Positions 1,091 through 59,050 of a stretch of 64,000 nucleotides of DNA are shown in pieces. Position 1 is the stretch's first letter; the number at the start of each line of letters is the position of its first letter. This DNA comes from a virus (taxonomy: Duplodnaviria > Heunggongvirae > Uroviricota > Caudoviricetes), in IMG/VR virus record IMGVR_UViG_3300031952_004642; one strand, given 5' to 3'. The position numbers were made by a program, and so were the translations under genes. Under the pieces are notes generated by a model. The model was given only the letters and a program-made list of their open reading frames with translations. It was not told where the DNA came from and made no database searches.

Positions 1091-1094
1091 ATGA

Positions 1095-1169: not shown

Positions 1170-1172
1170 AAG

Positions 1173-1782: not shown

Positions 1783-1785
1783 AAG

Positions 1786-7050: not shown

Positions 7051-8244
7051 ATGGAAGTCTGGAGGGCATATCGATATCGGTTGTACCCAAAAAGGGAAAC
7101 TGAACAGAAGATGATTGATATCCTTGAAACATGTAGACAGACCTATAATGAAATGCTAAATATTTGCCAATCCACTTATGAAATGACTGGAAAGTGTTTA
7201 AATAGATTTGACATGAATCGATGCATAAATTATGGGATTGATACTGATATCTCTAAGGTCAATAGTCAAGTCATTCAGAACATCAATGATAGAATTGCAA
7301 AAGCATTTTCAAATTTCTTCAGAAGAATCAAAGAAAAACAGAAAGGTAAGAATATCGAAGTCGGCCATCCTAGATATAAGAATATCTGTAAGTCTTTCAC
7401 CTTCCCACGTACAGGATTCAGATTAGAAAATAATACTTTATTTATGTCGAAAATAGGCATTGTTCAAATTCACATCGGAAGGAAGCAAAATAAAGTACAA
7501 GGACATATTAAAACATTAACGATAAAGAGGGAACTGAACGGGAAATGGTTTGCCTGTTTCACATGCATCGTAAACATCAAGAAAAAACAGAAAGCCGATA
7601 ACAGGAAGATTGGAATCGATGTCGGCATTGAACATTTTGCAAACCTATCAGATGGAACGATGATTGACAATCCAAGATTCTTAATTCAATCAGAAAGAAG
7701 ACTGAAAATATTGCAAAGAAGACTTTCGATGAAAAGGCTTGGAAGCACGAATAGGAAAAAGGCAAGACTGAAATTCGCCATGTTACATGATAAAATATCA
7801 AACCAGCGAAAAGATTTTATTCATAAGTTAAGTTGTTATGTTGTCAAGAAATATGGAACAATCGCTATTGAAGACCTGAATATAAAATCAATGGTGAGAC
7901 ATCCGTATCTTGCCAAGCATATCTGCGATGCGTCTTGGGGAATGTTTGCAAATATGATTCGCTACAAGGCTGTAAGTGCTGGAGCGGAGCTTGTTGAAGT
8001 GAACCCAAGTGGAACATCTCAGAAATGCTCTCAATGCAGGAATGAAGTGCCGAAAACATTAGCACAAAGATGGCATATATGTCCGTTTTGTGGACTGAGC
8101 CTACATAGAGATTTGAATTCCGCAAGGAACATACTTACCGTAGGAACTACGGGAATTTACGCCTGTGGAGATGGGAGTTCTGCTCTTACATCACTTGAGC
8201 ATAGCCCGTCAAGGAATCAGGAAGCCATTCAACTTGTTGGATGA
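7051..8244 (+). CDS. tnpB: TnpB (OrfB) RNA-guided endonuclease, RuvC-like with C-terminal zinc ribbon
   Basis: 397 aa. C-terminal CSQCRNEVPKTLAQRWHICPFCGLSLHRDLNSARNI is the TnpB/Cas12 zinc finger plus RuvC-III motif. The central region has the typical OrfB_IS605 layout. Confidence 0.9.
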   Translation: MEVWRAYRYRLYPKRETEQKMIDILETCRQTYNEMLNICQSTYEMTGKCLNRFDMNRCINYGIDTDISKVNSQVIQNINDRIAKAFSNFFRRIKEKQKGKNIEVGHPRYKNICKSFTFPRTGFRLENNTLFMSKIGIVQIHIGRKQNKVQGHIKTLTIKRELNGKWFACFTCIVNIKKKQKADNRKIGIDVGIEHFANLSDGTMIDNPRFLIQSERRLKILQRRLSMKRLGSTNRKKARLKFAMLHDKISNQRKDFIHKLSCYVVKKYGTIAIEDLNIKSMVRHPYLAKHICDASWGMFANMIRYKAVSAGAELVEVNPSGTSQKCSQCRNEVPKTLAQRWHICPFCGLSLHRDLNSARNILTVGTTGIYACGDGSSALTSLEHSPSRNQEAIQLVG

Positions 8245-31297: not shown

Positions 31298-31323
31298 ATA
31301 TTTAAAGTTTCGATAGTTTACGG
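31298..31323 (-). promoter_or_regulatory. BRE/TATA promoter-like element for the TPM operon
   Basis: Minus strand reads CCGTAAACTATCGAAAC-TTTAAATAT about 30 nt upstream of ATG 31268. Nearly identical to the element at 32499-32524. Confidence 0.4.
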
Positions 31324-31511: not shown

Positions 31512-32480
31512 TCATTTCTTCTTTCCGCTCATCGGTATCGGCGTAACGCCCGCCGCATCGGAAATGACATTCACAAGGCTCACTTTCGCTGGGACGATTA
31601 TCTTGGTTCCACGCTTCAGCGCATTCTGGGCAGTCTCCAGCTTCTTGAATGTCACTGCCTCATCCTTGAAATATTTCTGGATTGAAGTGTTCACGGTCTG
31701 GATGGCCTTCGCCTGCCCCTCAGCTTCAAGGATTGTAGCCTGCTTCTTGCCCTGTGCTATAAGTATCTGAGCCATCTTATCACCCTGAGCGGATTTGATG
31801 TTAGCACGACGTTTGCCATCCGCTTCAGTTTCCGCAGCGGTAGCCAAGTCCAGAGCAGCCTTCTTTGTGTTCTCGGCCTTGTTCACGTTGTTCATGCTAT
31901 CCTGAACGTCCTTCGGTGGCCTAATCTCCTTGATTTCGGCCCGCACGATTTCCAGACCCCAAGGCTTCGCTTCCTTTGCCAGCAGATTCTGCAACTTGGT
32001 GTTTATCTCGTTCCTCTTGCAATTGGCATCCTGATACGACATGTTGCCGATGATGTTCCTCAGCGTGGTCTTCGCAAGGCTCGTAATCTGATAGCGGTAA
32101 TTGCTCACATTATATTGGGATGCCTTCACAGATGTCTCATCGGGCTTGACCTTGAAATAAACCTGAGCATCGATGGTCGCATTCAGCCTGTCCTTGGTGA
32201 TTATCTCCTGCGCTTCCAAGTCCTCAATCTGCTCAGTTATGTTAACTTTAATCATCCTTTCCAAGAACGGGATTATCACATGGAACCCTTGGTCGGAAAG
32301 GCGCTTATATTTTCCAAGACGCTCAACTAAACCCTTCTCGGTAGGGCGCACAACCCGAATGCCCATGAAAAAGATAACGCATAAGATGGCCAGCAATCCA
32401 AGAATGCTCATCCATTCTCCGATATAGAAAAGAAATACAGATAACACAAACAGCACGATGACGGATATCAGGCCTTTCAT
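31512..32480 (-). CDS. SPFH/band-7 (stomatin/prohibitin-like) protein
   Basis: N-terminal TM. VRPTEKGLVERLGKY..G.H.IIPF .. ITKD .. IDA.VYF .. LAKTTLRNIIG .. WGLEI..VEIKEI.PP. Ala/Lys-rich coiled-coil tail. Confidence 0.85.
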   Translation of the reverse strand: MKGLISVIVLFVLSVFLFYIGEWMSILGLLAILCVIFFMGIRVVRPTEKGLVERLGKYKRLSDQGFHVIIPFLERMIKVNITEQIEDLEAQEIITKDRLNATIDAQVYFKVKPDETSVKASQYNVSNYRYQITSLAKTTLRNIIGNMSYQDANCKRNEINTKLQNLLAKEAKPWGLEIVRAEIKEIRPPKDVQDSMNNVNKAENTKKAALDLATAAETEADGKRRANIKSAQGDKMAQILIAQGKKQATILEAEGQAKAIQTVNTSIQKYFKDEAVTFKKLETAQNALKRGTKIIVPAKVSLVNVISDAAGVTPIPMSGKKK

Positions 32481-32498: not shown

Positions 32499-32524
32499 AG
32501 CTTTATAAAGTTTCGATAGTTTAC
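32499..32524 (-). promoter_or_regulatory. BRE/TATA promoter-like element for the SPFH gene
   Basis: Minus reads GTAAACTATCGAAAC-TTTATAAAG 21-30 nt upstream of ATG 32480. Directly abuts the transposon end. Confidence 0.4.
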
Positions 32525-32541
32525 GGCTTTGCACTTAAAGT
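32525..32541. repeat. Left 17-bp terminal inverted repeat of the transposon
   Basis: GGCTTTGCACTTAAAGT, identical to the reverse complement of 35958-35974. Confidence 0.8.
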
Positions 32542-32611
32542 GATTTCTGCACCTAAAGTCTGAAATTTGCACCTAAATTAACGAGTAAAGGGGTCAAAAA
32601 CGTGTTTAAAT

Positions 32612-33469
32612 ATGAAAAATACAATTTTTAATATGCCATTAGATTTTAGTCAGGCTTACTTTCAGGGAGAATTGGAGAAGAAAGTGAGAAACTTTGAAAA
32701 GATAAGAAAAACAACAGTATTATTATTCAATGCTGATATGGAACCTCCTGCTGTAGATTGGATTTGTAATATGGTAAGAAAGAGAAAAATTAAGGGGGGT
32801 GTTGATTTTTTCATTGAATCTGCTGGGGGTGATTTGGATTCTGCTTATCATATTGGCAAATTACTCCAAGAAAGTGTAAAGGGTAAGCTCACATTTATTG
32901 TTCCAAGGTATGCGAAGAGTGCAGCGACTTTGTTGTGTTGCGCTGGGGATGAAATAATAATGACGAGAAAAGCGGAATTGGGACCATTAGACCCACAAAT
33001 TAGGCTTAAAGGTGAAAGGTTTTCGGCTCTTGCAGTAAAAGCTGCATTGGGTCTTATTAATCAGAATTATACTGATAAGAAAACCAGTTTGGCAAACAAA
33101 CTTGCGACACTTTTGCCTTCACCCTTAATGCTCGGCGAACTTGATAGGTCATTGGAGATTTCTAAATCTTATTTAAATAAACTTTTGATGGGTAGAATGT
33201 TCAGAAACGGAAACAACAAGAAAAAAGTAAATGATATATCAGAAAAGCTTGCAAAGAAATATACTCACCATTTATATGTAATAAATCATGAAGAGGCAAA
33301 AAATGAGTTAAAACTGAAAGTAAGATTACCGAGTCTGAAGGAAAACGATTATATTTATGAGATACACAATCTTCAAGCGAAGATTAATGAAATCAGGGTC
33401 ATTCAAAAGAAATTATCCGAACACGCATTGATGAAACGTATTATAAACAAAATGGATGTGAATTTATGA
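32612..33469 (+). CDS. ClpP/crotonase-fold serine protease of the SDH (serine dehydrogenase proteinase, S49-like) family
   Basis: GGVDFFIESAGGDLDSAYHIGKLL ... TFIVPRYAKSAATLLCCAGDEIIMTRKAELGPLDPQI matches the family core (fIhSpGG ... vP..A.SAgTliAlaaDeIvM...A.LGPiDPQ). Confidence 0.65.
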   Translation: MKNTIFNMPLDFSQAYFQGELEKKVRNFEKIRKTTVLLFNADMEPPAVDWICNMVRKRKIKGGVDFFIESAGGDLDSAYHIGKLLQESVKGKLTFIVPRYAKSAATLLCCAGDEIIMTRKAELGPLDPQIRLKGERFSALAVKAALGLINQNYTDKKTSLANKLATLLPSPLMLGELDRSLEISKSYLNKLLMGRMFRNGNNKKKVNDISEKLAKKYTHHLYVINHEEAKNELKLKVRLPSLKENDYIYEIHNLQAKINEIRVIQKKLSEHALMKRIINKMDVNL

Positions 33470-33603
33470 ACAATGAGAAGACAATGAAGGAAAAAGGAAA
33501 TAAAAGTAGATTTGAAGACAAGGATTTTGTAATAACCGATAATATGATTTTACAAGTAGACGAGAAAAAGTGCTTTACGTGCAAAAATAGATTATTCTTA
33601 TAG
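33466..33603 (+). CDS. Unlisted 45-aa ORF MNNEKTMKEKGNKSRFEDKDFVITDNMILQVDEKKCFTCKNRLFL, coupled to the protease gene
   Basis: Its ATG overlaps the protease TGA (ATGA). Confidence 0.3.
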   Translation: MNNEKTMKEKGNKSRFEDKDFVITDNMILQVDEKKCFTCKNRLFL

Positions 33604-33611
33604 AATAAATC

Positions 33612-33809
33612 CTATTTTTTGTTCTTTAATTCTTTTTTCAGCGCATCTTCCACGAGGCTCGATGCATCAGTATTTCTATCTATGGCTTCGTGTTTTACAG
33701 CTTTCACTAAGTCCTCGTTTATACTCCAAGTTATCTTGACCCGTTTGCTCTTCTTTTCTACCATATGTATATACATATATACCGATAAGTATTTAAAGCT
33801 TACTATCAA
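33612..33809 (-). CDS. Ribbon-helix-helix (CopG-like) small DNA-binding protein
   Basis: KITWSINEDLVKAVKHEAIDRNTDASSLVEDALKKELK follows the RHH pattern. The real start is probably an internal Met near 33764. Confidence 0.5.
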   Translation of the reverse strand: MIVSFKYLSVYMYIHMVEKKSKRVKITWSINEDLVKAVKHEAIDRNTDASSLVEDALKKELKNKK

Positions 33810-33832
33810 ATACTTATACAGAAATACCGAAA

Positions 33833-35062
33833 GTGGTATTAAATATGGTGATAAATATAACTCAAAGAGAGATTAAGGGGTTCCAAATCGCCCAGAACGG
33901 AAGGATAGCCGAGACGCCGAAGGGCTGGATAGTCCCTTCGCAGAGCGGTAACGGCTCTTATCTGGTCTACAAGGACGGATTCCAGACAAGATGCACCTGT
34001 CCCGACAGCGAACTTAGAGGGGCAGAATGCAAGCACCAGATAGCCGTCAAGCTCTTCTACCACGAAGTCGAAGACGGACAGGGCAACGTAACGGTCACGA
34101 AAACCGTAAAGGTCACATATCCGCAGGATTGGAAAGCCTACAACGAAGCCCAGACCTCGGAAATACGCCTTTTTGATGCTCTCCTGAAGGATTTGGTGGC
34201 TGGAATCGAGGAACCAAAACAGGAGAAGGGCAGACCCAGATTAAGCCTTCAGGATACCGCCTTTTGTGCCATCCAAAAGGTCTATTCCCAGCTATCCCAG
34301 AGAAGGGCTCATACGCTTTATAGAAACGCAGAGGGGAAGCAACAGATAGGGCATTCCCCACATTTCAACGCAGTGGGTAAACTGCTTAACAGGACTGATA
34401 TAACGCCGACATTATACAACCTTTTATCGGTCTCCGCTTTGCCATTGAGGGGCTTAGAGACCACATTCGCCCCCGACAGTTCCGGTTTCAGGACAAGCAA
34501 ATTCGGGCAGTATGCAATCGAGAAATACGGCATCATGCGTAAGCACAAATGGGTCAAGGCTCACATTCTGACCGGAACCAAGACCAACATCATAGCATCA
34601 GCGAGGATTACAGAGGAGAACGGAGCGGATTGCCCCCAGTTCGAGCCTATGGTTTCCGAAGCCCACAACAACGGTTTCACAATCAAGGAAATACCGGCAG
34701 ATATGGGCTATTCAAGCCGGGAGAACTACAACCTCGCAACGAGCATAGGGGCCAAGGCTTACATACCATTCAAATCCAATTCAACCGGCAAATCCAGAGG
34801 CTCCTACACATGGATGAAGGCATACCATTATTTCATGCTGCATAGGGACGAATTCATGGAACATTATCACCAGAGGAGCAACGTGGAATCAGCCTTCAAC
34901 ATGGTAAAGGCGAAGTTCGGCGACAAGCTGAAATCGAAGAATTGGATAGCACAGCAGAACGAACTCCTATGCAAGCTCATTTGCCATAATATCGTGGTGC
35001 TAATACATGAAATGTATGAATTGGGAGTAAAACCGGATTTCTCAGTTAATAGCGTCAATTAA
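33833..35062 (+). CDS. IS4/IS5-family DDE transposase with N-terminal SWIM zinc finger
   Basis: CTCPDSELRGAECKHQ is a SWIM CxCx(n)CxH. ADMGY carries the second catalytic Asp. YHQRSNVESAFNMVKAK gives an exact Y-x2-R-x3-E-x6-K signature. Confidence 0.85.
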   Translation: MVLNMVINITQREIKGFQIAQNGRIAETPKGWIVPSQSGNGSYLVYKDGFQTRCTCPDSELRGAECKHQIAVKLFYHEVEDGQGNVTVTKTVKVTYPQDWKAYNEAQTSEIRLFDALLKDLVAGIEEPKQEKGRPRLSLQDTAFCAIQKVYSQLSQRRAHTLYRNAEGKQQIGHSPHFNAVGKLLNRTDITPTLYNLLSVSALPLRGLETTFAPDSSGFRTSKFGQYAIEKYGIMRKHKWVKAHILTGTKTNIIASARITEENGADCPQFEPMVSEAHNNGFTIKEIPADMGYSSRENYNLATSIGAKAYIPFKSNSTGKSRGSYTWMKAYHYFMLHRDEFMEHYHQRSNVESAFNMVKAKFGDKLKSKNWIAQQNELLCKLICHNIVVLIHEMYELGVKPDFSVNSVN

Positions 35063-35195
35063 TGTTTGTTTTGTTTTAAATTGATTTATAAATTAGTTTT
35101 ACGCATATATACTCATGGAACATCTTGATGGGAGGGCAAGATGTGGCGACACATATGCTTTTATTTCTTCCATATAAGTTAAAAGGGAGTATGAT

Positions 35196-35441
35196 ATGAC
35201 CGAAGAGCAACTTTTAATGGAAATGAAAAATTTCGATAGGGATAGTGATTTGTTTAACAAATCAATTAAAGCATTAAGAAAAGATTTTAAAGACAAATTT
35301 GTTGCATTCAAAGATGGTAAAGTCATTGCTAATGGGTGTACTTTCGATGAACTTAGAGATGTAACTGAAAAAAAACACATCGATTTGGGTTCTTGTGTTG
35401 TTCAGTTCATTCTGGAAAAGGATGTTCTTTATATCTTATAG
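35196..35441 (+). CDS. DUF5678-like small protein (81 aa)
   Basis: KFVAFKDGKVIANGCTFDELRDVTEK pattern. Own TATA (TTTATAAATT) about 100 nt upstream. Confidence 0.45.
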   Translation: MTEEQLLMEMKNFDRDSDLFNKSIKALRKDFKDKFVAFKDGKVIANGCTFDELRDVTEKKHIDLGSCVVQFILEKDVLYIL

Positions 35442-35467
35442 TTCAAACAGTGAACCGGCGAACTTAT

Positions 35468-35902
35468 ATGAAGATTAAACTGAAGAGTGCTAAATCTTTG
35501 GGATTCGATAGAGATATGGCGAGCATTGGCTTTAAGCACCCACAATTCGCAAGGGTTTTTGATAATGCCATAATTGATACGGGTTGTCCCTATGTTATCA
35601 TTTCTGAGAGTGTAATTAAAACGAGGAGGATGCCTTATAAAAAATATCCCAAACTTGAACTGGAAAGCCCACTTAACTTGGGTGGCATATTAATGGAATT
35701 GCGAGATTTGGGTGAATGCTCGATATTTATGTTTGATACAAACGATAAATTAAACGAATTCAAACATCGGGCATATGTGGGTGTTTCATTAACTCCAATC
35801 AACATGAAATTGCCTTCTTTCATCGGTATCGATTTTTTGAAAAAAAATAAATTGTCAATAAATTTTGAAGAAGATGGGAGTTATTTGATAAAAAGTCAAT
35901 AG
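35468..35902 (+). CDS. Retropepsin-like (clan AA) aspartic protease, archaeal AF_0612-type
   Basis: AIIDTGCPYVIIS contains the D-T-G catalytic triad in a hydrophobic context. Size is about 145 aa. Start taken at MKIKLKS; the listed ORF begins upstream at 35393. Confidence 0.5.
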   Translation: MKIKLKSAKSLGFDRDMASIGFKHPQFARVFDNAIIDTGCPYVIISESVIKTRRMPYKKYPKLELESPLNLGGILMELRDLGECSIFMFDTNDKLNEFKHRAYVGVSLTPINMKLPSFIGIDFLKKNKLSINFEEDGSYLIKSQ

Positions 35903-35957
35903 GTTCTATTCTGCACTTATATTCTATCATCTGCACCTAAAGTAGGGTTTTGAGGCG

Positions 35958-35974
35958 ACTTTAAGTGCAAAGCC
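35958..35974. repeat. Right 17-bp terminal inverted repeat of the transposon
   Basis: ACTTTAAGTGCAAAGCC, followed by the 9-bp target duplication ATAGTTTAC. Confidence 0.8.
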
Positions 35975-35979
35975 ATAGT

Positions 35980-36731
35980 TTACCGCTTCTTGAAGATGTC
36001 AAACATGTCCTTCAGGAAGTCATTCAACATCTTGATGTAATCCTTCAACTGGGAAGTGTCATCGACAGGAAGATTGCTGGTCGGAGAGAGGATGTTTCCG
36101 AGCCACATGTAGGTCTGGTAGACGAAATAAGCGATGTAGATTAGCAGGCATATCGCAACTATCCAGAAGATTGATTTAAGAGTGCCCATCAGATTTCACC
36201 GATTGCTCCTTGACCAATTACCTGAGCTGTTTGATTAACGATTTTGACGGTAACATGCTTTCGCCTGAGCAGGACAAGAAAGTCGGCGATGTCACGCAGA
36301 CAGGTCTCCTCATAAAGGGTGAAGCCGATTGGAAAGAAGGCGTACTGCCGCCACGAGCACGACCATTTTATCTCACCGAGCTCGATATGCGATATTCTGG
36401 AAACGACGCTATAGATATCAGTCTTGTCGCATTTGCGCTTCAGCTTGAATTCAACCCATTTAGACATCTTCATCACCCTTCATGATTTCACAACATCGAA
36501 ATCATCTGGAACGATGGTACAGTTCATTTCGAAATTCTGAGAGTCGCAAAGACTGGCGCACTCTCCGAGAGCGGCATAGGTCTGCTCGAGCAAATCGATG
36601 GCCTTCTTCCACCCTTCGAATACAGGCTGGACTATCAGGAAGTTGGCGAGCAGGAAGCCTATCATGACCCCAATAAGGATGAACCTGAGCATGTTCAGAT
36701 AGCTCATCTCGACAATGATAGGCAGCTTCAT
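35980..36731 (-). CDS. Three small proteins (35980-36189 TM; 36189-36476; 36480-36731 TM)
   Basis: Consecutive minus ORFs whose stop and start codons are directly adjacent. Confidence 0.4.
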
Positions 36732-48750: not shown

Positions 48751-49782
48751 TTAGTATTTAGCACCAAGGAAGCTTTTGATAGCTCCACCGAAGAAATAGA
48801 CGAGAGCAAGCACGACAAAAACGACACCTATAGCTAAAATGAACACAGTGACTGGCTGGGTGATTCCAGTCAGGAAACCCGATATCCCATATCCTACAGA
48901 AGTGAGCATCTGAGTCATCGGCATCTCCTCGAGGATTTCCGCAGAGACATCATAGCCGCTTCCAGAATCAGCAAGGACATTCGGCATTACGATGAACGCA
49001 AATAAGAACGGAAGCAGAATGGAAATATAGCCAACACCATGCCTGAAAGACTGATTCGCTGAACGCTTCCATCTGACGAACATCAGGCAAGCCGCACACA
49101 TGATTACGATTAAAGCTCCAGCAATAAAAAAGACGGCCCCATCATTTCCACTGGAAACTGGTTCAGGCTTTGGCGGCACTGGAAAGCTCGTCACGACCGC
49201 TGGCTCATAGAAGCCCGCACCCAGTTCATTATCCGCATAACGGAATGATGTCATAGGCTGGCCAGTTGCCTTGAGAACCGCATGGATATCATTCGTGCCG
49301 ACCTGATTCTGCTGGCCAACGACAATAGCCATCCAACCCCTGATGCCTTTCTTGAGAACGACATTCTTGGCTGTCGCCTTATCGACATACGCAACCTCGA
49401 AAGGAACATCTGCGAAATCACCGACAGCATAGTGGATATCATCAGGCAGCATTATCGTGAATGTCATTTTCTTGGAGCTGAACGGCGCAACTGTGACCAT
49501 CTGGCTTTCCAAGTAGATAAGAGGCGATTCGACCAGAATCGCAACATCAACAGGATTCTCGCCATTGTTCTGGAGCTCGAAAGACCAGTAATGAGGGCTG
49601 CCTATCTCATTGAGAGGCACATAAACGACCTTTTGGCCATAGTATTCAACGAGCCCGAGACCAAACGCAGAGCCGCTCAACAACACCCAGACAAACGATG
49701 CCATCAGGGCTAACCTGATACCAGCGTTAATCACCTGAGTCCTCGCTTTAGGAGGAGATATACCATTCCTGTCCGACATCAT
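48751..49782 (-). CDS. Membrane protein (343 aa): signal/TM, ectodomain, C-terminal polytopic segment
   Basis: Hydropathy pattern. Its start overlaps the giant-gene stop by about 35 nt. Confidence 0.55.
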   Translation of the reverse strand: MMSDRNGISPPKARTQVINAGIRLALMASFVWVLLSGSAFGLGLVEYYGQKVVYVPLNEIGSPHYWSFELQNNGENPVDVAILVESPLIYLESQMVTVAPFSSKKMTFTIMLPDDIHYAVGDFADVPFEVAYVDKATAKNVVLKKGIRGWMAIVVGQQNQVGTNDIHAVLKATGQPMTSFRYADNELGAGFYEPAVVTSFPVPPKPEPVSSGNDGAVFFIAGALIVIMCAACLMFVRWKRSANQSFRHGVGYISILLPFLFAFIVMPNVLADSGSGYDVSAEILEEMPMTQMLTSVGYGISGFLTGITQPVTVFILAIGVVFVVLALVYFFGGAIKSFLGAKY

Positions 49783-52700
49783 TCACGTACACCTGCTTGG
49801 CTGTTTCTGAAGGCAGAGCTGACGGGTCTATTCCGAAGTACAAGGTCAGCAGACCAGTGCCCGACCCACGCCTGTCGAGATAAGCGCCATCGATGACAAC
49901 GGCAATCCCATCCAATAGTCCAGTTGAAGTTGCCCATATTCCGGTAGGCCCAGCCTTGAAGACATTCCCATCCACTGGCAGCAGATAAGTCGGCTGGCTG
50001 ACACCAACGAGACTATAGGCGGTTATCGTTATGTTTGTCTGGTTCACATTGCCAGTGTTCCTGAGAGTCACATAATCAGGGAAAGTCGGGCCATCATTTA
50101 ACATATATGAACCGAAAGAGATGGTGCTTGTATCGCTGACCCAAGCCTTCAGCTCATTGTAAGTCAGGCTGCCGATTAGCGATGTGTTGCACAGCAGGCC
50201 CAAATCACACACATGAAGCTCGGCTGCCCAGATTCCAGCAGCATAGTAATACTGCATCGGCAAAGTGCATTCGAACCTTCTGGCAGTCGCACTGATGTTG
50301 TAATTCCTGCACGAGGAATTGATAACGCTCTCGGAGCCTTTATATATTTTCCCATAATGCACTGCGCCAGTCACGCCAGACACATCATCCGCACTGAAGT
50401 TGACCGACACATACACAACAGAATCCTCGAGTGGAGTCGCAATCGGCTGCACTGACACATCATAAATGAATGGTGGGCTGGTATCAACCTTGAACATCAC
50501 ATCAACACTCTTCACATTGAATGCAGTGTCGTTGGCAGTTACCCTGAGATAGTATGTACCATCTGGAAGGCCCGTCGCCACGAAATTGAAATCAGTCAGG
50601 TTGCCAGTGTTGTTGAATCTGGAATCATTGATGAACACCAAATCGAGATGAGCATCATACACAACACCGAATATTGTCACATTCCCGACTGGATAGACAG
50701 TGCCATTGACTGGATAATATACATCAACAACGGGCAGCGAATTATCATCATCCTCCCAGATGTTTGGATTCGTACCATAAAAATTAATCTCCTGACCATC
50801 AGTGAACCCACCCTCATCGGTGTCTGCACTGAACGGATTCGTGTAATAAGTGAACAGCTCAACGAAATCAGTCAGATTGTCAGAATCGGAATCCATGCCC
50901 TGCAAGGTCGCATTATCAGGCAGGTTGAATATCACGAATGCCTGCTGGTATCTGCCGAACATGACATTTGTCCACATCGCATCAAGATGCAGTCCATAAT
51001 CATAAATATCATCATCCGAAGTGAATTGAATCTCAGAAAATTCCTTGAAATATACACCAAGACTCTCAGGATATGTCGCATTGAAGATATTCGCAGCAAC
51101 GCCCTCAATCACATCATTTTCCTGAGTCAACATTGTCGACGGGTTCGCATGAAAATCCCTTGTCATGGCGTTAAGGTCATACTGCCAACTGAAAATCGCA
51201 TTGTAATCCATAACGTAATTCTGAGCATGCCAGAAGTATATGCTCCACCAGCTATCTGAATGCCAGTAATGGGTATAATAGTTCCTGATTCCATTTGAAG
51301 GGATGATAGTCTCATTCCACCAGAAATCCAAGAATGCAAAACAGTACCTGTACTGGTCAGTCCCTTCTGGAGAATCAGCATTGAAACCATCAACAGGCTG
51401 ACCGCCATAAGGTATCTCCTCGCCAGACGGCAGGCGAATCTTGTTCTTGTCAAAAGTATGGACACCCCTTGTCGGATTAAGGACACCAGTATCGAAAGAC
51501 TCACCATTCCATATCCCACCCCTGAACAGCTCACCAGCATCATAAAGAGTGCCAGACCTTTCAGGGCCGAGTCCAGACTCACGGCCACCACCATAATATT
51601 CCACCATCATGCATTCATAGAGGTCTCCACCAGATTCGATGCACCACCTATAGACGGAATAATTGAACCTCGGCATTCCTTCCATGTAAAGAAGCTTGTA
51701 TTCCAGAGGCTCTGGAATGCAACCAAATGAAACGTATTTGCGCTCATTCTGATTCGGCTGGTTGAGCGGATGACTCAAGCTCGGCTTAGTCCAGTTTATC
51801 ACCATCATCGTATCATTCCAGACCTCGAAAGTGTACCAGCTCTGGACGAGATTCTCCTTTTCTATATACCACATATCTGAAGTGTTGGACATCGACTCAA
51901 AAGCCCAGACAGTCCCGTTCCACCATCTCAGACGAAGATTACCAGAGCCAGTCACATTGGTCTCTATCCATATGGAATCCTCACGCTGGCAGGAACCTTC
52001 CCTATACCCAGAGCAGAGCCTGACCCTGTTGTCATCATCATCAGTAATCGGACTGCCAGCAAAGCAGAATTCTGGAACCCTGAACTCATTCTCATACGCA
52101 TCGGAATATCCAGTTGACTGGTCACCCTCGGCAACAGCCCTGTAAAAGAACGTTTTCCCATAAACTACTGGAACAATGAAACAACTAACCATTGGAGCAG
52201 ACACGATTCCAGTCACCTTGCTGGACTCATTGAAAAACTCATTCAAAGTGTCCTCTTCCCAATACTGGAAATACAGGTCAACAGTCTGAGAATCTGCATC
52301 AGTCAGGTTGAGACAGACAGTCACCTGCTCATTCGGTCTGTCCTCTGTATAATTCAGGAATTCAACAATCGGAACGGAAGGCAGGCTGCCAAGCGTTATG
52401 TTGGCATCAGCATATCCACAGGTTTCTTCAGCACCCGAAACACAGGACATTGCACGTATATAATAAGTTGAATTTTCCTGAAGACCTGAAATATTGAACT
52501 TCGGGATTGCGGACTCATTGAAATAACCAGTCATATTCTCACCAACGAACCACGGATTGAACGAATACCTTACCCAGTTATCAGAGGTCGGGTCAACATC
52601 CCATGAAACATTTATGGCAGTATCGTTTATCGCCTCAACCGTAAGATTAGATAAAACAGCCAACGGGTATTCGAGTTCAATTTCAGGGCCGATGGTCACA

Positions 52701-55700
52701 TTCTGCCAGACACCTGAATAAGACAGCGACTGGGACTCCGAGGAAGCGCCAGATTTCCCGTAATACATCCAGAATTTCATCTCATAATCACCATCAAGAT
52801 GGTCGAGATAGACTGTGAGCCAAACATTTGCCTGATAGAACCATGTCATCTCTATATGGTAAACATGGTAATAATTCGTGGCAGACCTGAGAGTATACCA
52901 GCTCTGGTCTGAATTATTCTGGCACTGCCATACTACCAGCGTATCATTATAGCTCGCAAGAGCCCTGAACTTAAGCTCAGTATCACCATCCCAGCAATCT
53001 GTCGGAACATCCATCCACCAGCCATAGCCCTCGCCATCCTTCACATTAACCTTGCTCGAAGGCTTCGAACCACTCGGCTTCGTGAAGTTGAAATAAACTG
53101 AAGCATTCGTCTCAACGAAAGGCGAGCCAAAGGTGTTCATGTCACCGTCATAAGTGTGATTGCAGTTCACCCACACACCATCACAACGAGTCGCATTCGG
53201 AATTATCTGGGTAGCCGTCCCTCCAGCCTGAGTCACATTAATATATTGCAAAGTATAATTGAGCTTCGAGACTTCCTCGAAATCAACGAACCTGAAATCA
53301 GCACCAGTATCCGGCTCACCAAGACTTCCGAAATTGAAACCCTCATCATCCAGCGTCACGTTCACTGCATAGCTTTCCAAATCGGAAGGCACATCCTTGA
53401 CAGTAACGAGTCTCTTCTTCGGGAAATCGGTAAGCTCATCAAGCCAGCCCTCAGTCCTCACGAGAAACGAATATTCTCCACCAATCACACCCCATATATC
53501 TCCAGAATAATGGGTGAAATTATAAACGGTATTCCATTTCAGGAGCTCATGATTCGCAGTCCACTCATCGGAAGTCGTCAGAGCAGTCCTTATCGTCTCA
53601 GACTGTTCGAGGATTTTCAGCGAAATCCATTCATTGTCTGGCGCATTGTCCCATTTGAAAGTGAGATAATTCGTACCCTTATCATGGACACGCATGTTCA
53701 GCGCACGTGGCTCATCATTTGCCATGAACTGATAGATTCCAGATGTCGTCACGTAAATCCCATCGGTCACATTGACGAACCATGTGTAATTCTGGAAAAT
53801 CGTGAAATTGATGCTCCAGACGACCTGAGCAACCCCGCCAGATGCCACAGCATAATCAACGCCTATCAGTGCATCATCAGTGCCATTGTAGAAATACACA
53901 TCCATCACATCGGCATCAGGGTCTGTCACTGTAATCTGTAAAGAGACAGGAGGAATCACACCACTGCCATTGTAAGGCTCCTCATTTGTCGGCTGGTCTG
54001 GAGGCGAAGAAGTGAACGCACCATACGATGAATTCGTTCCCGCATCATTTGATTCGTTGGCGAACGTGAAAATGAACACACCAGAAGGCAGTCCGCTGAC
54101 AGCCCATGTGTAATTGCAGGACAAGTCAGAATCACAGCCAGCATCAGCCATCGTCACCGATGAATCGATGAGCTCCTCACCAACACCCTGAACAGTGCTC
54201 CAGTGAATCTGGAAATCGCCGTAATCATTATCTCCACGTGTCCAGTTGATGTAATAAGAAAATCCATTCCTGAGAATCTGGCCACCACTGTTCGGCTCGA
54301 GAGCTGTAATAGGTTTCGGATAAAACTTGTATGGAATGCCAGCGACACCAGCACGGATGCCAGTCAGACCCTGAAGGCCGCCAGAAACGAAACTGATTTC
54401 ATTGCTATAAAAAGTGTTGCCTGTCGAGCTTAGCAGGTAGACCGCAGCACCTGCACCACCATCTCCCTTATATGTCAGTCCGTCATTGTGAGCATTGCCT
54501 CCACGACCGCCACTCACATTATATATAGAGTTATAGCCAACGAAGTTCGTACCTGATGAATTAAGCATGATTCCCGCACCGATTCCACCAGTCCCGCCAT
54601 GAGCATTCTGGTTCGTCGAACCGCCAAGACCACCTTCGATTTCCGAAATGTCATTGCTGGACACATTATTACCAGAGCCGCCGAACACATAAACGCCCGC
54701 CCCATAAGAGCCTATCCCGCCAAAACTGCCAACCATGTCACCAGATTCACCGATATAATTGGCAATCGTATTGCCTATGACATCCGTGTTGTCGGTATCT
54801 ACGAGTGCGATTTTACCGTAATTTGTTGTCGATGCAAACGAAGTCAGCGTAAGGCCCGTAATCGAAAGGCCGTTCTTATTATACAGGTAAACGATATAAT
54901 CGCTGTCCTGAATGTTGAAGACAGATGTGCCGCTTCCAAGGTCATTCGCCATTGAGTCGCCCTCCAAGAAAATGCCAAACGCAGTGCCATTAGAACCATC
55001 CTTCGCAGTGTAATCAGCGGCATATCCCTGCAAGCCGCCAGAAAGCGAGCTGATAACGTTATTCTGTATTATATTGTCTTCCGATGCGCCGCCAAGATAT
55101 ATGCCATAAGCGTCCATTCCCGAGCTCGCAAGAGCATAGTCGCCGCCAGATGCACCATGTCCACCAGTCACATTAGAAACGATGTTATAAGACACATTAG
55201 ATGCAGTCACATTCCACAGGTAGATTCCAATGCCGTGAGTGCCATGATAACCGCTGCTATTGTAAGATGGATTCGTAAAACCAGAAAGGCCATTGACATA
55301 ACGGAAGGTGCTCCCAGTCACGTTGACATTGACAGAATTCACAATGGCAATCTTTCCAAGGTTCATCGGGCTCACATCCGATATCAACGATAAACCGCTA
55401 ATGACGAGACCACTCTTCCCATATATGTATATAATGTAATCTCCATCAACGGTATTGAAATCAGCAGCCGAAACACCAAGGTCGTTGTCTGTCAAAGCAT
55501 AAACTGGCTCCGAGCCAGTAGCAGACAGAGAACCCGGCTCAAAGTAAACACCATATCCGCTTTGATTGAAAGAACCATAGACATCACTGCCGACCTGAAG
55601 GCCACCAGCACCAGCATATCCACCACGCACAGAGCTCATCGCATTCTTCTGGATGGTATTTCCCGAGACAGTGTTCGAAAGGAAGACTCCCGCACCGATA

Positions 55701-58700
55701 CCACCCGTTCCACCAGTCCTCGAGCCTGAACCAGCAAAGACCACACCATATCCACCGAGGCCGCCAGACACATTGGTCATGTTATTCAGCGTCACGGTGT
55801 TGCCGCTCGCAGAAGACGCAAAGTAGATAGCTGAACCTGCACCACCAACATTCCCTCCGCCACGACCCCTGTAATGGCTGCCTTCACCACCTGTTATGTT
55901 GGAAAATACATTCAAAGAGATGAAATTATCGGAGGATGCCGCATAAACACCAGCACCGATTCCACCAGAAGTCGCAGTGCTGCTTCCACCGCCACACACG
56001 GAATCGCTGAGACCACCTGCGATTTCGCTGATTATGTTGCTGGACACATTATTGGCAGAGCCAGTGATAAGAAAAGCAGCACCCGTTCTCCCACTTGTCG
56101 CTTCAGCGCATGGCGGCACAGATGCAACAATTCCATGGACATGGTTTTCAGTGAATAAGCCACCAGTTGACGCAGCGATGATTCCGTAGCTGTTGTAAGT
56201 CGAGTTGATTCCACCGCTGACGTTGCAATTCTGGATTGTCACATTAGGCACAGTCACATTGAAACCACCATCAATCAACGTGCTGTTCACGAACTGGCAG
56301 ATTATCGTGACCATCTTGTCCACAACAACGCTCTCAGGATAAGTTCCATTGTAGATTCCAATGACATCACCATCGCTGGCAGCATTTATCGCCGACTGTA
56401 TGCTCTGACCATTCACAACAAGCTGGTCATAAGATGCAAGCTGAAGATTGATATGAGCATCACTTGAAAAGTTGAACGCAGTAGAATTATCATAATAACC
56501 GAAAGCACCTGTTGCACTGAGAGTGTACGGCTGTTTATACGCAGTCGCTCCACTGTCATAATAGTATTCAGTCTGCGGAGTCGTTCCAGCATTCACCACT
56601 GAAGAATATACGGTATTTCCAAAAACGTCTTTCAGAGTCACAGAATTCGGAACTCCAACAACATCGTAAATCACATTCCATTTCCTGAAGTATTTGGAAG
56701 TCCCAGTTACATCGTTTATCATCGGAGCAGTAACATTAAGCAGAGTAAGATTGTTCGAACCAGAAAGATTGATGTAACGATTTATCTTGGAATTATTAAT
56801 CATGTTTTCTGTTCCACCCCAATCGAAAACGTATTCAGATGTCATTCCATTGAACGTATTATAGTTAGAAGATGCATCCATCGAGATTGTATAGGCAACA
56901 ATGTTCTCAGCACTTTTTCCATCACAGCTCTGTCTTAGTATCTGACCAAGATTCCCGTTGCTCATGTTGACGCAATCACTAATGACCTGTCCGTAAGGAT
57001 GCACTGAGCCGTTTCCTCCATTGGATTTTGACGCTATCAGGTTTCCGAGTCCGAGAGTCGTCGGCAATCCCATTGACGGCATTTCCCATCCAATAGTACT
57101 GTTGAAATAATTTCCAGTTCTTGTTCCAGTAGTTGCAGAAGGAAAACGTATCCCAATATAGCATCCAGTATAATTACTATTCACCGTATCAAATGATGCT
57201 GAAGAAGTTCCTCTCACACAATAGGTCTTTCCATAACCATCGATAGTAAAATTGTCAGCAACATAAAAAGTTTGCAGATTATTTATGTTTCCATATAATA
57301 TGGAATCCTGAAAAATAAGCCCTGAACCTGTAGCTGGTGGAATACTGTTAAACGTATCTGCACTCAGATGGCTACCATTTATAGCGCTGCCTATGAAAAT
57401 TGCATAACATGGATTTGAATTTGCACTAAAAGCACCTATCAAATGTGAATTAAAAAAATAACCCCATCTTGGAATGAACTGTGTAGTCACACTGTTCCCA
57501 TGATTATCAGAATAATACACAACATTGTAAAAATAATAGTTTTTATGAGCGCCACCAATATAGCTGAACTGGATACCCACGTTGTCAGGGTCTATTGTGA
57601 GATTATAGACATTAACATTATTTGAGACAGTATCATGGTATTTTAGTAAATATGAAGAATCGCCTGAAAGAGTATATGAATTTCCGTAAACATTTATGCC
57701 ACTTCCAGCAAAATATATCCCTTCTGCTGTTGAGCATGACCAATCCCTAGTGAAATTAAATCTTCCCCCAGCATACATCCGCTCTCCACAGTACAGTGGA
57801 TAAACCCTTCTTCTATCAGTCACAAAAAGGTTGCCAGTATGATTCACATAAACCTGAATGTCTGTCGGATTTGATGTGAGCCAAGTCAGATTAAGATAGC
57901 AGTAATCGCCATTAACTGTCATCGTTTCATTTGTGTCATAGCCCTCATCAGTCCAAGTGAGAATGCAATTATCTATCCCATTTCCAGATGGCTGGCTGAC
58001 ATTTACATAGATATATTTCCCTTCAGTGTAACTCGCATTTTCAGGGGTCGGAGAAACGAACACTGGATACAGGTCTACAGTTGAAAATGAATCTGTCCCA
58101 ACAGTGTTATTATAGGCAGCCTTTATCTCATCAGCCGACAGGCTGTAATTGTAAAACCTCACCTCATCAATATAGCCGACAAAACCAGAAGTTCCATCAA
58201 CATATGCACCGACTGTCACATTCTCACCTGTCAACAGGTTCGGATTTATTACACCAGTCCAACCTTCGAGTTTTCCATCAGTATAGACATACGCAGAACC
58301 AGCATCATACACAAAAGCACATAAATGCCAATTATTGTCTGTTATCGTCGTCGTGCCTGTCACATAAACATACCCCGGCCCATATCCACTTATAGCGCAT
58401 TTATTAGAATCCACCACCAACGCAGTTGATTTGCCAGTACCTGAAATTCCGACAGTCACTACATATTTGTTGTTCGTCGATGTCTTGACCCAAGCCATGA
58501 CAGTGTGGTCATTATCGTCAGTTGGCCCATTTGTAATAGATACCTGCAAAAATTCCGCAGAGGTGAATTCAAAAGCATTTCCTACTTTGCCACTCACCAA
58601 TCCATTGGAAATTCCATAAACAGTGTTGCCATATGGGCTCGAATCCACATATTCGTTCATATGCATTATCGAAAGAGCCTGTGAACCCCAAGGATTCAGG

Positions 58701-59050
58701 TAGTCGCTTGCGTTCCCCTCATCAACATCCATAGGCAGCTTAATCGTCTCCGTTACATCAGAACATTCATAGGTTGACGAATCATTGAAACGAAAATATC
58801 CAACAGTTTGTGTTATTGTACCGACCGTGAAATTGCAAAAAATTATCTGTTTTTCAGCAAAAATATTGACAAAAGAATCTTTAAGCAAAACTGGCAAAGA
58901 AACCGCCGATGACCCATAGCTTGTCGCATTTATCGCATATCTGTATACGTAGCTGTCGAGCGCTGAAACAGAACTAAACAGGCAAGAAATGGCTATAAAG
59001 AAAGCGATAGATACCAAAATCCTGCTGTTTCCGACCATAAAACCCTTCAC
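49748..59050 (-). CDS. Giant (3100 aa) secreted surface/adhesin-like protein with LamG/ConA-like lectin domain and multiple right-handed parallel beta-helix (NosD/disaggregatase-like) repeat blocks
   Basis: N-terminal signal peptide. GNAFEFTSAEFLQV ... HTVMAWVKT ... NWHLCAFVYDAGSAYVYTDG ... VRFYNYSLSADEI is a LamG domain. Long runs of G/N/S/T-rich repeats (GGxGG.G..G..V.L.S...N.) are typical of beta-helix arrays. Uninterrupted 9.3-kb ORF. Confidence 0.85.
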   Translation of the reverse strand: MKGFMVGNSRILVSIAFFIAISCLFSSVSALDSYVYRYAINATSYGSSAVSLPVLLKDSFVNIFAEKQIIFCNFTVGTITQTVGYFRFNDSSTYECSDVTETIKLPMDVDEGNASDYLNPWGSQALSIMHMNEYVDSSPYGNTVYGISNGLVSGKVGNAFEFTSAEFLQVSITNGPTDDNDHTVMAWVKTSTNNKYVVTVGISGTGKSTALVVDSNKCAISGYGPGYVYVTGTTTITDNNWHLCAFVYDAGSAYVYTDGKLEGWTGVINPNLLTGENVTVGAYVDGTSGFVGYIDEVRFYNYSLSADEIKAAYNNTVGTDSFSTVDLYPVFVSPTPENASYTEGKYIYVNVSQPSGNGIDNCILTWTDEGYDTNETMTVNGDYCYLNLTWLTSNPTDIQVYVNHTGNLFVTDRRRVYPLYCGERMYAGGRFNFTRDWSCSTAEGIYFAGSGINVYGNSYTLSGDSSYLLKYHDTVSNNVNVYNLTIDPDNVGIQFSYIGGAHKNYYFYNVVYYSDNHGNSVTTQFIPRWGYFFNSHLIGAFSANSNPCYAIFIGSAINGSHLSADTFNSIPPATGSGLIFQDSILYGNINNLQTFYVADNFTIDGYGKTYCVRGTSSASFDTVNSNYTGCYIGIRFPSATTGTRTGNYFNSTIGWEMPSMGLPTTLGLGNLIASKSNGGNGSVHPYGQVISDCVNMSNGNLGQILRQSCDGKSAENIVAYTISMDASSNYNTFNGMTSEYVFDWGGTENMINNSKINRYINLSGSNNLTLLNVTAPMINDVTGTSKYFRKWNVIYDVVGVPNSVTLKDVFGNTVYSSVVNAGTTPQTEYYYDSGATAYKQPYTLSATGAFGYYDNSTAFNFSSDAHINLQLASYDQLVVNGQSIQSAINAASDGDVIGIYNGTYPESVVVDKMVTIICQFVNSTLIDGGFNVTVPNVTIQNCNVSGGINSTYNSYGIIAASTGGLFTENHVHGIVASVPPCAEATSGRTGAAFLITGSANNVSSNIISEIAGGLSDSVCGGGSSTATSGGIGAGVYAASSDNFISLNVFSNITGGEGSHYRGRGGGNVGGAGSAIYFASSASGNTVTLNNMTNVSGGLGGYGVVFAGSGSRTGGTGGIGAGVFLSNTVSGNTIQKNAMSSVRGGYAGAGGLQVGSDVYGSFNQSGYGVYFEPGSLSATGSEPVYALTDNDLGVSAADFNTVDGDYIIYIYGKSGLVISGLSLISDVSPMNLGKIAIVNSVNVNVTGSTFRYVNGLSGFTNPSYNSSGYHGTHGIGIYLWNVTASNVSYNIVSNVTGGHGASGGDYALASSGMDAYGIYLGGASEDNIIQNNVISSLSGGLQGYAADYTAKDGSNGTAFGIFLEGDSMANDLGSGTSVFNIQDSDYIVYLYNKNGLSITGLTLTSFASTTNYGKIALVDTDNTDVIGNTIANYIGESGDMVGSFGGIGSYGAGVYVFGGSGNNVSSNDISEIEGGLGGSTNQNAHGGTGGIGAGIMLNSSGTNFVGYNSIYNVSGGRGGNAHNDGLTYKGDGGAGAAVYLLSSTGNTFYSNEISFVSGGLQGLTGIRAGVAGIPYKFYPKPITALEPNSGGQILRNGFSYYINWTRGDNDYGDFQIHWSTVQGVGEELIDSSVTMADAGCDSDLSCNYTWAVSGLPSGVFIFTFANESNDAGTNSSYGAFTSSPPDQPTNEEPYNGSGVIPPVSLQITVTDPDADVMDVYFYNGTDDALIGVDYAVASGGVAQVVWSINFTIFQNYTWFVNVTDGIYVTTSGIYQFMANDEPRALNMRVHDKGTNYLTFKWDNAPDNEWISLKILEQSETIRTALTTSDEWTANHELLKWNTVYNFTHYSGDIWGVIGGEYSFLVRTEGWLDELTDFPKKRLVTVKDVPSDLESYAVNVTLDDEGFNFGSLGEPDTGADFRFVDFEEVSKLNYTLQYINVTQAGGTATQIIPNATRCDGVWVNCNHTYDGDMNTFGSPFVETNASVYFNFTKPSGSKPSSKVNVKDGEGYGWWMDVPTDCWDGDTELKFRALASYNDTLVVWQCQNNSDQSWYTLRSATNYYHVYHIEMTWFYQANVWLTVYLDHLDGDYEMKFWMYYGKSGASSESQSLSYSGVWQNVTIGPEIELEYPLAVLSNLTVEAINDTAINVSWDVDPTSDNWVRYSFNPWFVGENMTGYFNESAIPKFNISGLQENSTYYIRAMSCVSGAEETCGYADANITLGSLPSVPIVEFLNYTEDRPNEQVTVCLNLTDADSQTVDLYFQYWEEDTLNEFFNESSKVTGIVSAPMVSCFIVPVVYGKTFFYRAVAEGDQSTGYSDAYENEFRVPEFCFAGSPITDDDDNRVRLCSGYREGSCQREDSIWIETNVTGSGNLRLRWWNGTVWAFESMSNTSDMWYIEKENLVQSWYTFEVWNDTMMVINWTKPSLSHPLNQPNQNERKYVSFGCIPEPLEYKLLYMEGMPRFNYSVYRWCIESGGDLYECMMVEYYGGGRESGLGPERSGTLYDAGELFRGGIWNGESFDTGVLNPTRGVHTFDKNKIRLPSGEEIPYGGQPVDGFNADSPEGTDQYRYCFAFLDFWWNETIIPSNGIRNYYTHYWHSDSWWSIYFWHAQNYVMDYNAIFSWQYDLNAMTRDFHANPSTMLTQENDVIEGVAANIFNATYPESLGVYFKEFSEIQFTSDDDIYDYGLHLDAMWTNVMFGRYQQAFVIFNLPDNATLQGMDSDSDNLTDFVELFTYYTNPFSADTDEGGFTDGQEINFYGTNPNIWEDDDNSLPVVDVYYPVNGTVYPVGNVTIFGVVYDAHLDLVFINDSRFNNTGNLTDFNFVATGLPDGTYYLRVTANDTAFNVKSVDVMFKVDTSPPFIYDVSVQPIATPLEDSVVYVSVNFSADDVSGVTGAVHYGKIYKGSESVINSSCRNYNISATARRFECTLPMQYYYAAGIWAAELHVCDLGLLCNTSLIGSLTYNELKAWVSDTSTISFGSYMLNDGPTFPDYVTLRNTGNVNQTNITITAYSLVGVSQPTYLLPVDGNVFKAGPTGIWATSTGLLDGIAVVIDGAYLDRRGSGTGLLTLYFGIDPSALPSETAKQVYVNDVGQEWYISS

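Follow-up and report, generated by a model that had tools for sequence, protein, structure and literature searches.

Within a 64,000-nucleotide stretch of DNA assigned to a virus of the Caudoviricetes (IMG/VR record IMGVR_UViG_3300031952_004642; the whole stretch is called the window below), positions 32525-35974 are occupied by a mobile element of 3,450 bp. The insertion is genuine, and the element is very probably an autonomous, structurally intact DDE unit transposon with passenger genes. It falls within a large branch of the IS4/IS5 superfamily found in archaea, a family that is widespread and apparently undescribed. A single pair of terminal inverted repeats (TIRs) and a single target-site duplication (TSD) enclose one transposase gene together with passenger genes, which is the arrangement of a unit transposon or transporter insertion sequence (IS); all six open reading frames (ORFs) of the element are uninterrupted, and only one transposase gene and one such TIR pair occur in the 64-kb window. 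A first-pass annotation had read the locus as an IS4/IS5-type DDE transposon with passengers, inserted just upstream of an SPFH gene. That reading is supported, and the evidence from related elements strengthens it.

Ends of the element and its target duplication

The left TIR, GGCTTTGCACTTAAAGT, is matched at 17 of 17 positions by its exact reverse complement at the right end, and the direct repeat ATAGTTTAC that brackets both TIRs is identical at 9 of 9 positions (Table 1). Both repeats had been reported in the first pass, and both held on re-extraction and in the output of a repeat finder. In shuffled sequence, 0.21 copies of the 17-mer with up to three mismatches would be expected in the window, where two perfect copies are present; for the 9-mer the expectation is 0.15, and three copies are present, namely the two flanking ones and one at 31313. 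The TIR/TSD arrangement is far beyond chance. The third 9-mer copy (31313-31321) is intergenic, upstream of a TPM-phosphatase gene, has no transposon ends nearby and is probably a chance occurrence.

The ends also carry subterminal copies of TGCACYTAAAG, for which seven matches were counted against 1.9 expected. On the left they lie at 32548-32558 (no mismatch) and 32568-32578 (one mismatch), and on the right at 35912-35922 (two mismatches) and 35932-35942 (none); the copies noted previously are thus real, and the earlier coordinates agree with ours to within one base. The two right subterminal copies are both on the plus strand, in direct orientation relative to the left end and inverted relative to the right terminal copy, so that the two ends of the element are not mirror images but have an asymmetric layout. 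Taken as 11-bp copies at 35911-35921 and 35931-35941, they end 54 and 34 bp from the right terminus. The left ~53 bp share 80-92% identity with the ends of elements that are unrelated in other respects, and the last 66 bp share 76-82% with those of other elements.

Table 1. Features of the element and of the adjacent host gene, in window coordinates
Feature	Position	Strand	Remarks
Host SPFH/Band_7 gene (outside the element)	31512-32480	-	PF01145, 9e-38
Left TSD copy ATAGTTTAC	32516-32524	.	Identical to 35975-35983
Left TIR GGCTTTGCACTTAAAGT	32525-32541	+	Begins GGCTTTG, as in IS903
Left end module	32525-32580	+	Three same-orientation TTGCACYTAAA copies at element positions 5, 23 and 43
SDH-type ClpP-fold serine protease, 278 aa	32633-33469	+	Alternative start at 32612 gives 285 aa
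45-aa ORF	33466-33603	+	ATGA overlap with the protease stop codon
Ribbon-helix-helix (RHH)-like DNA-binding protein, 54 aa	33612-33776	-	Divergent from the transposase; DUF6364 4e-5, RHH_1 1e-3, Arc-like phrogs
Perfect 16-bp palindrome ATATGTATATACATAT	33763-33778	.	Read from sequence; candidate operator or TATA region
Transposase, 405 aa	33845-35062	+	N-terminal SWIM zinc finger and IS4/IS5-type DDE domain
DUF5678 protein, 81 aa	35196-35441	+	PF18929, 2.4e-5, 24.5 bits against a cut-off of 23.2
Retropepsin-like (clan AA) aspartic protease, 144 aa	35468-35902	+	Profile-level match
Right end module	35909-35974	.	Inverted terminal copy and two plus-strand subterminal copies
Right TIR	35958-35974	-	Perfect complement of the left TIR
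Right TSD copy ATAGTTTAC	35975-35983	.	Overlaps the stop codon of the 69-aa host ORF 35980-36189(-)

Transposase, regulator and related archaeal elements

The transposase matches DDE_Tnp_1 (PF01609) at 2e-21 and SWIM (PF04434) at 23.8 bits, above the cut-off, and its translation contains YHQRSNVESAFNMVK, that is, Y-HQ-R-SNV-E-SAFNMV-K, which fits the Y(2)R(3)E(6)K pattern exactly. The SWIM-finger DDE transposase with a YREK motif that had been proposed from the sequence is thereby borne out. The best NCBIfam model was NF033579 (IS5_2), with 116.2 bits against a cut-off of 140, and the other IS5, IS4, IS1182 and ISNCY models scored far lower. More than 6000 homologues were found, the best of them 77% identical, with Aenigmarchaeota, Altiarchaeota, Helarchaeota and similar groups among the named sources; the best matches on bacterial plasmids were IS5-family transposases with ~25% identity.

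The 54-aa protein encoded divergently from the transposase resembles RHH proteins by weak matches, several of them just under the Pfam cut-offs. Its earlier identification as an RHH protein stands at that sub-threshold level; its earlier listing among the cargo does not, since a gene in this position is a conserved core component of the family described below, and the 54-aa gene occupies the family's core regulator slot. The palindrome ATATGTATATACATAT spans the RHH start codon in the control region between the two divergent genes; that region is AT-rich, and the palindrome may be fortuitous.

Sixty-eight genome loci and several metagenome loci were fetched around transposase homologues, and an element was called wherever a perfect 9-bp direct repeat and an inverted-repeat match of at least 12/16 flanked the transposase, a rule for which our own estimate is ~0.01 false pairs per locus. 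This gave 33 non-redundant elements, of which archaeal genome bins supplied 30 and metagenome contigs two, the remaining one being the window element, all with GGCTTTGC-type termini or close variants; allowing 1-2 TSD mismatches adds three more. Set aside from the census were L052 and L062, which have different TIR sequences, and L072, an 11.8-kb pair with the GGCTTTGC-like variant AGCTTTGTTAAAC. The loci that failed the rule were mostly contigs ending near the transposase or carried truncated transposase genes. The 33 elements measure 2326-6637 bp (median 4127), and none of them is a bare IS of ~1.4 kb.

The layout of the window element's ends recurs throughout this set. In most of the 33 elements the 11-bp motif stands at positions 5, 23 and 43 of the left end in the same orientation, and at the right end as an inverted copy at position 5 with two oppositely oriented copies ending 34 and 54 bp from the terminus, an arrangement kept from Micrarchaeota to Methanoregulaceae. 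The motif itself varies by clade (TTGCACGTAAA, TTGCTAATAAA, TTGCTACTAAA, TTGCCCTTAAA). About 29 of the 33 have a 45-78-aa gene on the opposite strand that starts 60-185 bp upstream of the transposase, and these divergent small genes fall into at least four non-homologous classes (Zn-ribbon, AbrB/MazE-type, RHH, and winged-helix or winged helix-turn-helix). The end motif tracks the transposase clade and not the class of the small regulator; as elements with different regulator classes share it, the 11-bp repeats are better assigned to the transposase than to the regulator.

Pairs of related elements are alike in two blocks only, the left ~56 bp (90-96% identity) and a ~1.5-kb block of regulator, transposase and right end (76-84%), and the DNA between these blocks is unrelated. 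Two elements on one Methanoregulaceae contig (L016 and L024; CAVTTL010000001.1) illustrate this: they share 90% identity across 58 bp at the left end and 84% across the block of regulator, transposase and right end, with wholly different cargo (proteins of 450 and 340 aa in the one, 468 and 184 aa in the other). The comparison shows a fixed chassis, consisting of the ~56-bp left end and the ~1.5-kb module, and because related elements share nothing beyond it, the cargo must have been exchanged on a constant chassis.

Base composition could suggest a different history. The transposase gene of the window element has a GC content of ~49-50% and the cargo on both sides ~33%, with flanks of 45-52%, so the interior is not uniformly AT-rich as had been stated, the transposase resembling the flanks and only the cargo being low in GC; nor is it entirely plus-strand, the RHH gene lying on the minus strand. 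The sharp step from ~49% to ~33% is what would be left by a nested or composite origin, in which a GC-richer IS had entered an older AT-rich element or the cargo had been caught between two copies of an IS or a miniature inverted-repeat transposable element. However, the repeat finder detected no inverted repeats or duplications bracketing the transposase gene itself, and the window has one transposase and one TIR pair rather than the flanking copies of a composite transposon. In every family element the TIR/TSD pair encloses the transposase together with all of the flanking cargo, and in ~13 of the 33 the transposase stop codon lies exactly 64 bp from the right terminus. The GC contrast, moreover, is found in 33 of 33 elements (means of 0.385 for cargo and 0.476 for transposases, with host flanks at 0.517); it is a family trait and hence no evidence of nesting. 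We therefore rejected a nested IS as the source of the mosaic, and regard a nested or composite origin, largely refuted by these findings, as very improbable.

The family's cargo is dominated by restriction-modification genes. DNA methyltransferases account for 16 of the 84 cargo proteins of at least 90 aa, and other passengers include type I S subunits, HsdR N-terminal domains, BsobI, BglII, GmrSD and type IIG enzymes, besides KaiC-like ATPase, NYN and DUF488 proteins. One metagenome contig (L096) holds a methyltransferase-carrying element of 3830 bp whose TSD is perfect. On another (Ga0265296_1001339; L133:490-1362), an element of 873 bp has the same 17-bp TIRs, also perfect, and is flanked by a repeat matching at 8/9 positions. 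It lacks a transposase, its single ORF, of 170 aa, was judged PIN-like by eye, and it is apparently a non-autonomous derivative that retains cargo alone. A contig of a Methanothrix metagenome-assembled genome (JAQTXY010000114.1; L039:110-5051 onward) carries at least two identical 2462-bp copies head to tail, a third starting at 5052, each separated by the 9-bp TCATGCAGA, which also borders the array at its left. This array could be a tandem or circle-junction intermediate, the product of unequal exchange between duplications, or an assembly loop. Together, the derivative and the array point to mobilisable ends.

Passenger modules, insertion site and carrier

The passenger module to the left of the regulator consists of the SDH-type protease and the 45-aa ORF coupled to it, both as first annotated. 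The protease exceeds the cut-off of SDH_protease (PF01972; 3e-14, 53.2 bits against 31.3), does not reach that of the NCBIfam equivalog NF047768 (7e-18, 64.9 bits against 250) and matches phrog_11747, of unknown function, at 6e-39. It lacks a hydrophobic or transmembrane segment (maximum Kyte-Doolittle 19-residue mean, 1.14). Homologous SDH proteases are carried as cargo by two more elements of the family, L034 and L046. For the 45-aa ORF, searches of the Pfam, NCBIfam, PADLOC and phrogs families returned no homologue. The nearest relatives of the protease (39-43% identity) lie outside transposons, at L074:4089-5121 and L075:5001-6040; a 59-60-aa ORF begins within 17-18 bp downstream of each, and these two small ORFs are similar to one another and unlike the 45-aa ORF of the window.

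The position of the protease gene ~150 bp from an SPFH gene had led to the suggestion that a ClpP-class protease had landed beside its canonical stomatin partner. On that account, the protease would be an NfeD-like partner of the adjacent SPFH protein and the insertion would have created or restored a stomatin operon, and weak matches to NfeD1b_N (24 bits) and CLP_protease could be cited along with the adjacency. The NfeD1b_N score, however, is 24.4 bits against a cut-off of 40, the NfeD C-terminal domain was not detected, and the protein, as noted above, has no hydrophobic segment. The two genes are divergent, with a transposon end between them. Nor does the family favour such a partnership: the duplicated target 9-mers of the 33 elements have no strong consensus, the two other elements with an SDH protease have no SPFH neighbour, and SPFH homologues occur in only 2 of ~150 related loci. 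The proposed link thus found no support, and we consider a protease-stomatin operon extremely improbable; the adjacency looks coincidental, and the position beside the SPFH gene is probably an accident.

To the right of the transposase, a second module pairs a DUF5678 protein, whose earlier assignment is confirmed by a score above the family cut-off (Table 1), with a 144-aa protein that on its own matches no Pfam or NCBIfam model. An exhaustive HMMER search yielded 109 relatives of the latter, and in an alignment of 94 sequences D37-T38-G39 and G120/D122 are invariant and the motif G-x-D-F-L is invariant or nearly so. The 94-sequence profile matched DDI2 in the PDB at 3.9e-6, and also DDI1, ApRick and the protease of feline immunodeficiency virus; a 4-sequence profile had returned only a spurious sigma-factor match, the search being informative only with 94 sequences, and an AlphaFold2 model built from the 4-sequence alignment was too poor (mean predicted local confidence, pLDDT, 52.6) to be used for a fold search. 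Judged by its motifs (the active-site D-T-G and the C-terminal G-x-D-F-L) and its profile-level homology, the 144-aa protein is a predicted retropepsin-like aspartic protease of clan AA, the clan of TIGR02281, DDI1, ApRick and the retroviral proteases. The earlier call of a retropepsin-like protease therefore stands at the profile level, and the model then named for it does not: TIGR03698 (clan_AA_DTGF) failed to match the window protein at E≤0.1 and matched one of the 94 relatives (E 0.002), whereas TIGR02281, matched by 14 of the 94, is the nearer model.

The pair of DUF5678 protein and ~145-aa protein recurs in other genomes in unrelated contexts. Compared with the PADLOC candidate system PDC-M08, the 144-aa protein is weakly similar to PDC-M08B (1e-5), and its DUF5678 partner does not match PDC-M08A.

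The element sits on a 105.9-kb contig (ENA ERZ27247989, k141_2189677), in a ~40-bp intergenic spacer bordered by the SPFH gene on one side and the stop codon of a 69-aa ORF on the other. On the minus strand, CGAAAC-TTTATAAA (~32503-32516) starts just within the left copy of the TSD, with the first SPFH ATG ~21 nt downstream, and is plausible as a putative B recognition element and TATA box of that gene.

The minus strand carries nearly all ORFs of the window, most of them without a family match. Recognisable genes encode YopX, a Cas4-like PD-(D/E)XK nuclease, RNase H, an R2K ATP-grasp protein, DUF932, a topoisomerase-like phrog, radical SAM/SPASM enzymes, LemA, a TPM phosphatase and the SPFH protein; no structural genes (capsid, terminase) were seen within the window. 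This content suits an archaeal virus or a large extrachromosomal element as the carrier. At least 10 tRNA genes are packed into 207-2518 (-), three of them 111-142 nt long, a size suggesting introns; dense tRNA arrays of this kind typify large viruses or extrachromosomal elements. At 7051-8244 (+), among the few plus-strand genes, an IS605-type OrfB/TnpB (PF01385, PF07282; phrog_506 at 1e-104) represents a second, unrelated mobile element. A 3100-aa ORF at 49748-59050 (-), whose only recognisable domain is an N-terminal, concanavalin-like Laminin_G_3, may encode an adhesin or receptor-binding protein of the carrier.

With such a carrier, the cargo could be thought to serve the virus or extrachromosomal element, as counter-defence or maturation proteases, and not the maintenance of the transposon. 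The character of the contig (YopX, Cas4-like nuclease, TnpB, tRNA array and genes nearly all on one strand) agrees with this, as do weak matches of the SDH protease to models of phage head-maturation proteases and its strong match to phrog_11747. The head-maturation scores are nonetheless far under their cut-offs (34 against 120 bits), the same class of protease is carried by family members on genome-bin contigs of Methanosarcinales and Methanotrichaceae, and the cargo lies inside the transposon boundaries with the low GC typical of the family. We regard service to the carrier as unlikely, and prefer to see the protease modules as passengers of the transposon.

Relation to known systems and proposed mechanism

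Among described elements the closest comparison is with IS903, of the IS5 family, from enterobacterial plasmids. The IS903 end GGCTTTGTTGAATAAATC... has exact matches in more than 5000 plasmids and abuts a coding sequence annotated as an IS903-family transposase; it was verified as GGCTTTGTTG... beside the annotated IS903 transposase. IS903 makes a 9-bp target duplication (ISfinder family tables). The window element and its 32 census relatives likewise have GGCTTTG termini and a 9-bp TSD, and the transposases of the window element and of IS903 are both of the DDE_Tnp_1 type, each with Y(2)R(3)E(6)K. Along the C-terminal 205 aa, the window transposase shares 23% identity with that of IS903 (E 1e-10), and the D, D and E/YREK regions align in register. 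It differs in an additional N-terminal SWIM region of ~100 aa, and the archaeal elements differ from IS903, a single-ORF element of ~1.05 kb, in their hosts, in their size of 2.3-6.6 kb with passengers, which sets them apart from simple ISs, in their three-copy asymmetric end repeats and in their divergent small regulator gene. Given its GGC termini, 9-bp TSD and IS5-type DDE domain, the element would work like a member of the IS903 group, and it is filed here as a variant within the IS4/IS5 superfamily, with membership of that group uncertified.

In the bacterial transporter ISs and unit transposons of ISfinder and TnCentral, a single TIR pair encloses a transposase and passengers (bioRxiv 10.1101/2021.05.26.445724). 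The archaeal elements likewise have a single TIR pair and unrelated passengers, without flanking IS copies; in them, however, cargo is the rule and not an occasional exception, and it consists mainly of restriction-modification genes, where transporter ISs carry resistance or regulatory genes. Tn7-like transposons also carry defence cargo (PMC8649781), and archaeal relatives of Tn7 were reported in 2025 (bioRxiv 10.1101/2025.07.27.667033). Asymmetric ends with several repeats, transposase-binding in Tn7 and presumptively so here, and a variable cargo bay rich in defence genes are common to both. The archaeal family, though, relies on a single IS5-type DDE protein in place of TnsA/B/C and target selectors, duplicates 9 bp instead of 5, is much smaller, and shows no evidence of insertion at specific sites.

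According to a survey of integrated elements in archaea from 2019, no DNA transposons with passengers had been detected there (PMC6563490). Casposons and aloposons are named as earlier cargo-carrying archaeal integrated elements (PMC4046053; PMC11529989, citing Wu et al. 2022), and for the Asgard archaea a 2024 paper lists no reported transposons with cargo besides aloposons (PMC11529989). When mobile restriction-modification systems were studied systematically, none of the cases that passed the filters was archaeal (PMC2853133). Like the elements described here, casposons and aloposons are archaeal, have TIRs and/or duplications and move passengers; they differ in being much larger and in using a Cas1 integrase with PolB or machinery of the tyrosine-recombinase type, neither of which is homologous to the present DDE transposase.

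Eukaryotic Mutator-like elements (MULEs) and Pack-MULEs have a SWIM zinc finger, target duplications of the 9-bp class and a tendency toward captured genes. The link between SWIM domains and MULEs has been discussed (PMC1702500). The catalytic domain of the window transposase is PF01609 (IS4/IS5), however, and not of the MULE/IS256 type, and its SWIM finger is N-terminal, not C-terminal; the likeness is a resemblance only.

Movement of the element can be pictured as follows. The transposase would recognise the six 11-bp end sites through its N-terminal region, presumably with the aid of the SWIM finger, synapse the two non-equivalent ends and cleave at their GG termini, and insertion would proceed via staggered cuts 9 bp apart. 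The RHH protein may repress the divergent promoter region holding the palindrome at 33763-33778, and so regulate its own synthesis. The two protease modules would ride the transposon as addiction systems of toxin-antitoxin type, or as antiviral or inter-element conflict systems. As the rest of the family carries mainly restriction-modification systems, we infer that addiction or conflict is their most likely role, and toxin-antitoxin or abortive-infection modules are plausible forms for it.

Several points weigh against this account of the element. That the transposase binds the repeats, that its SWIM finger takes part and that the RHH protein acts as a repressor are steps we infer from the sequence. 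The cargo has no strong match to any validated defence system, its sole database support being the weak PDC-M08B match, and the sequence of the small ORF downstream of the protease is not conserved. With 116 bits against the IS5 cut-off of 140, formal membership of IS5/IS903 is not established. Transposition may proceed by cut-and-paste or through a circle or tandem junction, and the head-to-tail Methanothrix array hints at the latter.

Finally, since neither an empty-site allele nor a second copy has been found, recent mobility of the window copy is undemonstrated. The pre-insertion sequence was reconstructed as TTTCGATAGTTTACCGCTTCTTG (GTTTCGATAGTTTACCGCTTC marking the empty site), and TTTCGATAGTTTACCGCTTCTTG had no match in viral_contigs; the TIR had none there either, and a lookup of the flanking SPFH protein returned the occupied locus only. 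At least 120 metagenome contigs share the 17-mer TIR, some perhaps by chance, the metagenome collection being very large, and in 80 of them no second copy of the exact element was present, only the ends and the transposase being similar. All three contigs or assemblies that carry the element, moreover, show the same neighbourhood. These results would also be expected of a decayed, immobile relic, a fossil insertion fixed in its host replicon with its genes domesticated or decaying. Yet the TIRs and the TSD have not lost a single match, none of the six ORFs is interrupted, the DDE and YREK motifs are preserved, and the relatives that have decayed look different, with truncated transposases and mismatched TSDs. 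A relic is for these reasons quite unlikely, and an intact transposon remains the reading that we favour.

DNA transposons with passengers are central to bacterial gene flow; archaea were held to have few of them or none, the described exceptions being casposons, aloposons and, of late, the Tn7 relatives (PMC6563490; PMC11529989). The elements reported here share one compact chassis, built from a regulator, a SWIM-DDE transposase and two ends of 56 and 66 bp, which is found in many lineages of archaea with interchangeable cargo. Full-text searches of the literature found no published description of the family, and ISfinder lay outside the comparison, so we set the probability that it was previously undescribed at about one half. 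The chances are similarly balanced for the broader proposition that these elements form a new family of autonomous DDE unit transposons across archaea, reaching DPANN, methanogens, Thermoplasmata, probably Nitrososphaeraceae, and their viruses and extrachromosomal elements; that, with a dedicated cargo bay between the 56-bp left end and the module of regulator, transposase and right end, they act as a general shuttle for restriction-modification and conflict systems; and that the protease modules are new defence or addiction systems.

If confirmed, the family would supply a mechanism by which restriction-modification systems have come to be distributed so patchily among archaea, DPANN and methanogens included. 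Its cargo would amount to a guilt-by-association catalogue of archaeal defence and addiction genes, with the two protease modules of the window as candidates. It would also offer a small, single-protein transposon with defined ends as a possible genetic tool for archaea, where such tools are few.

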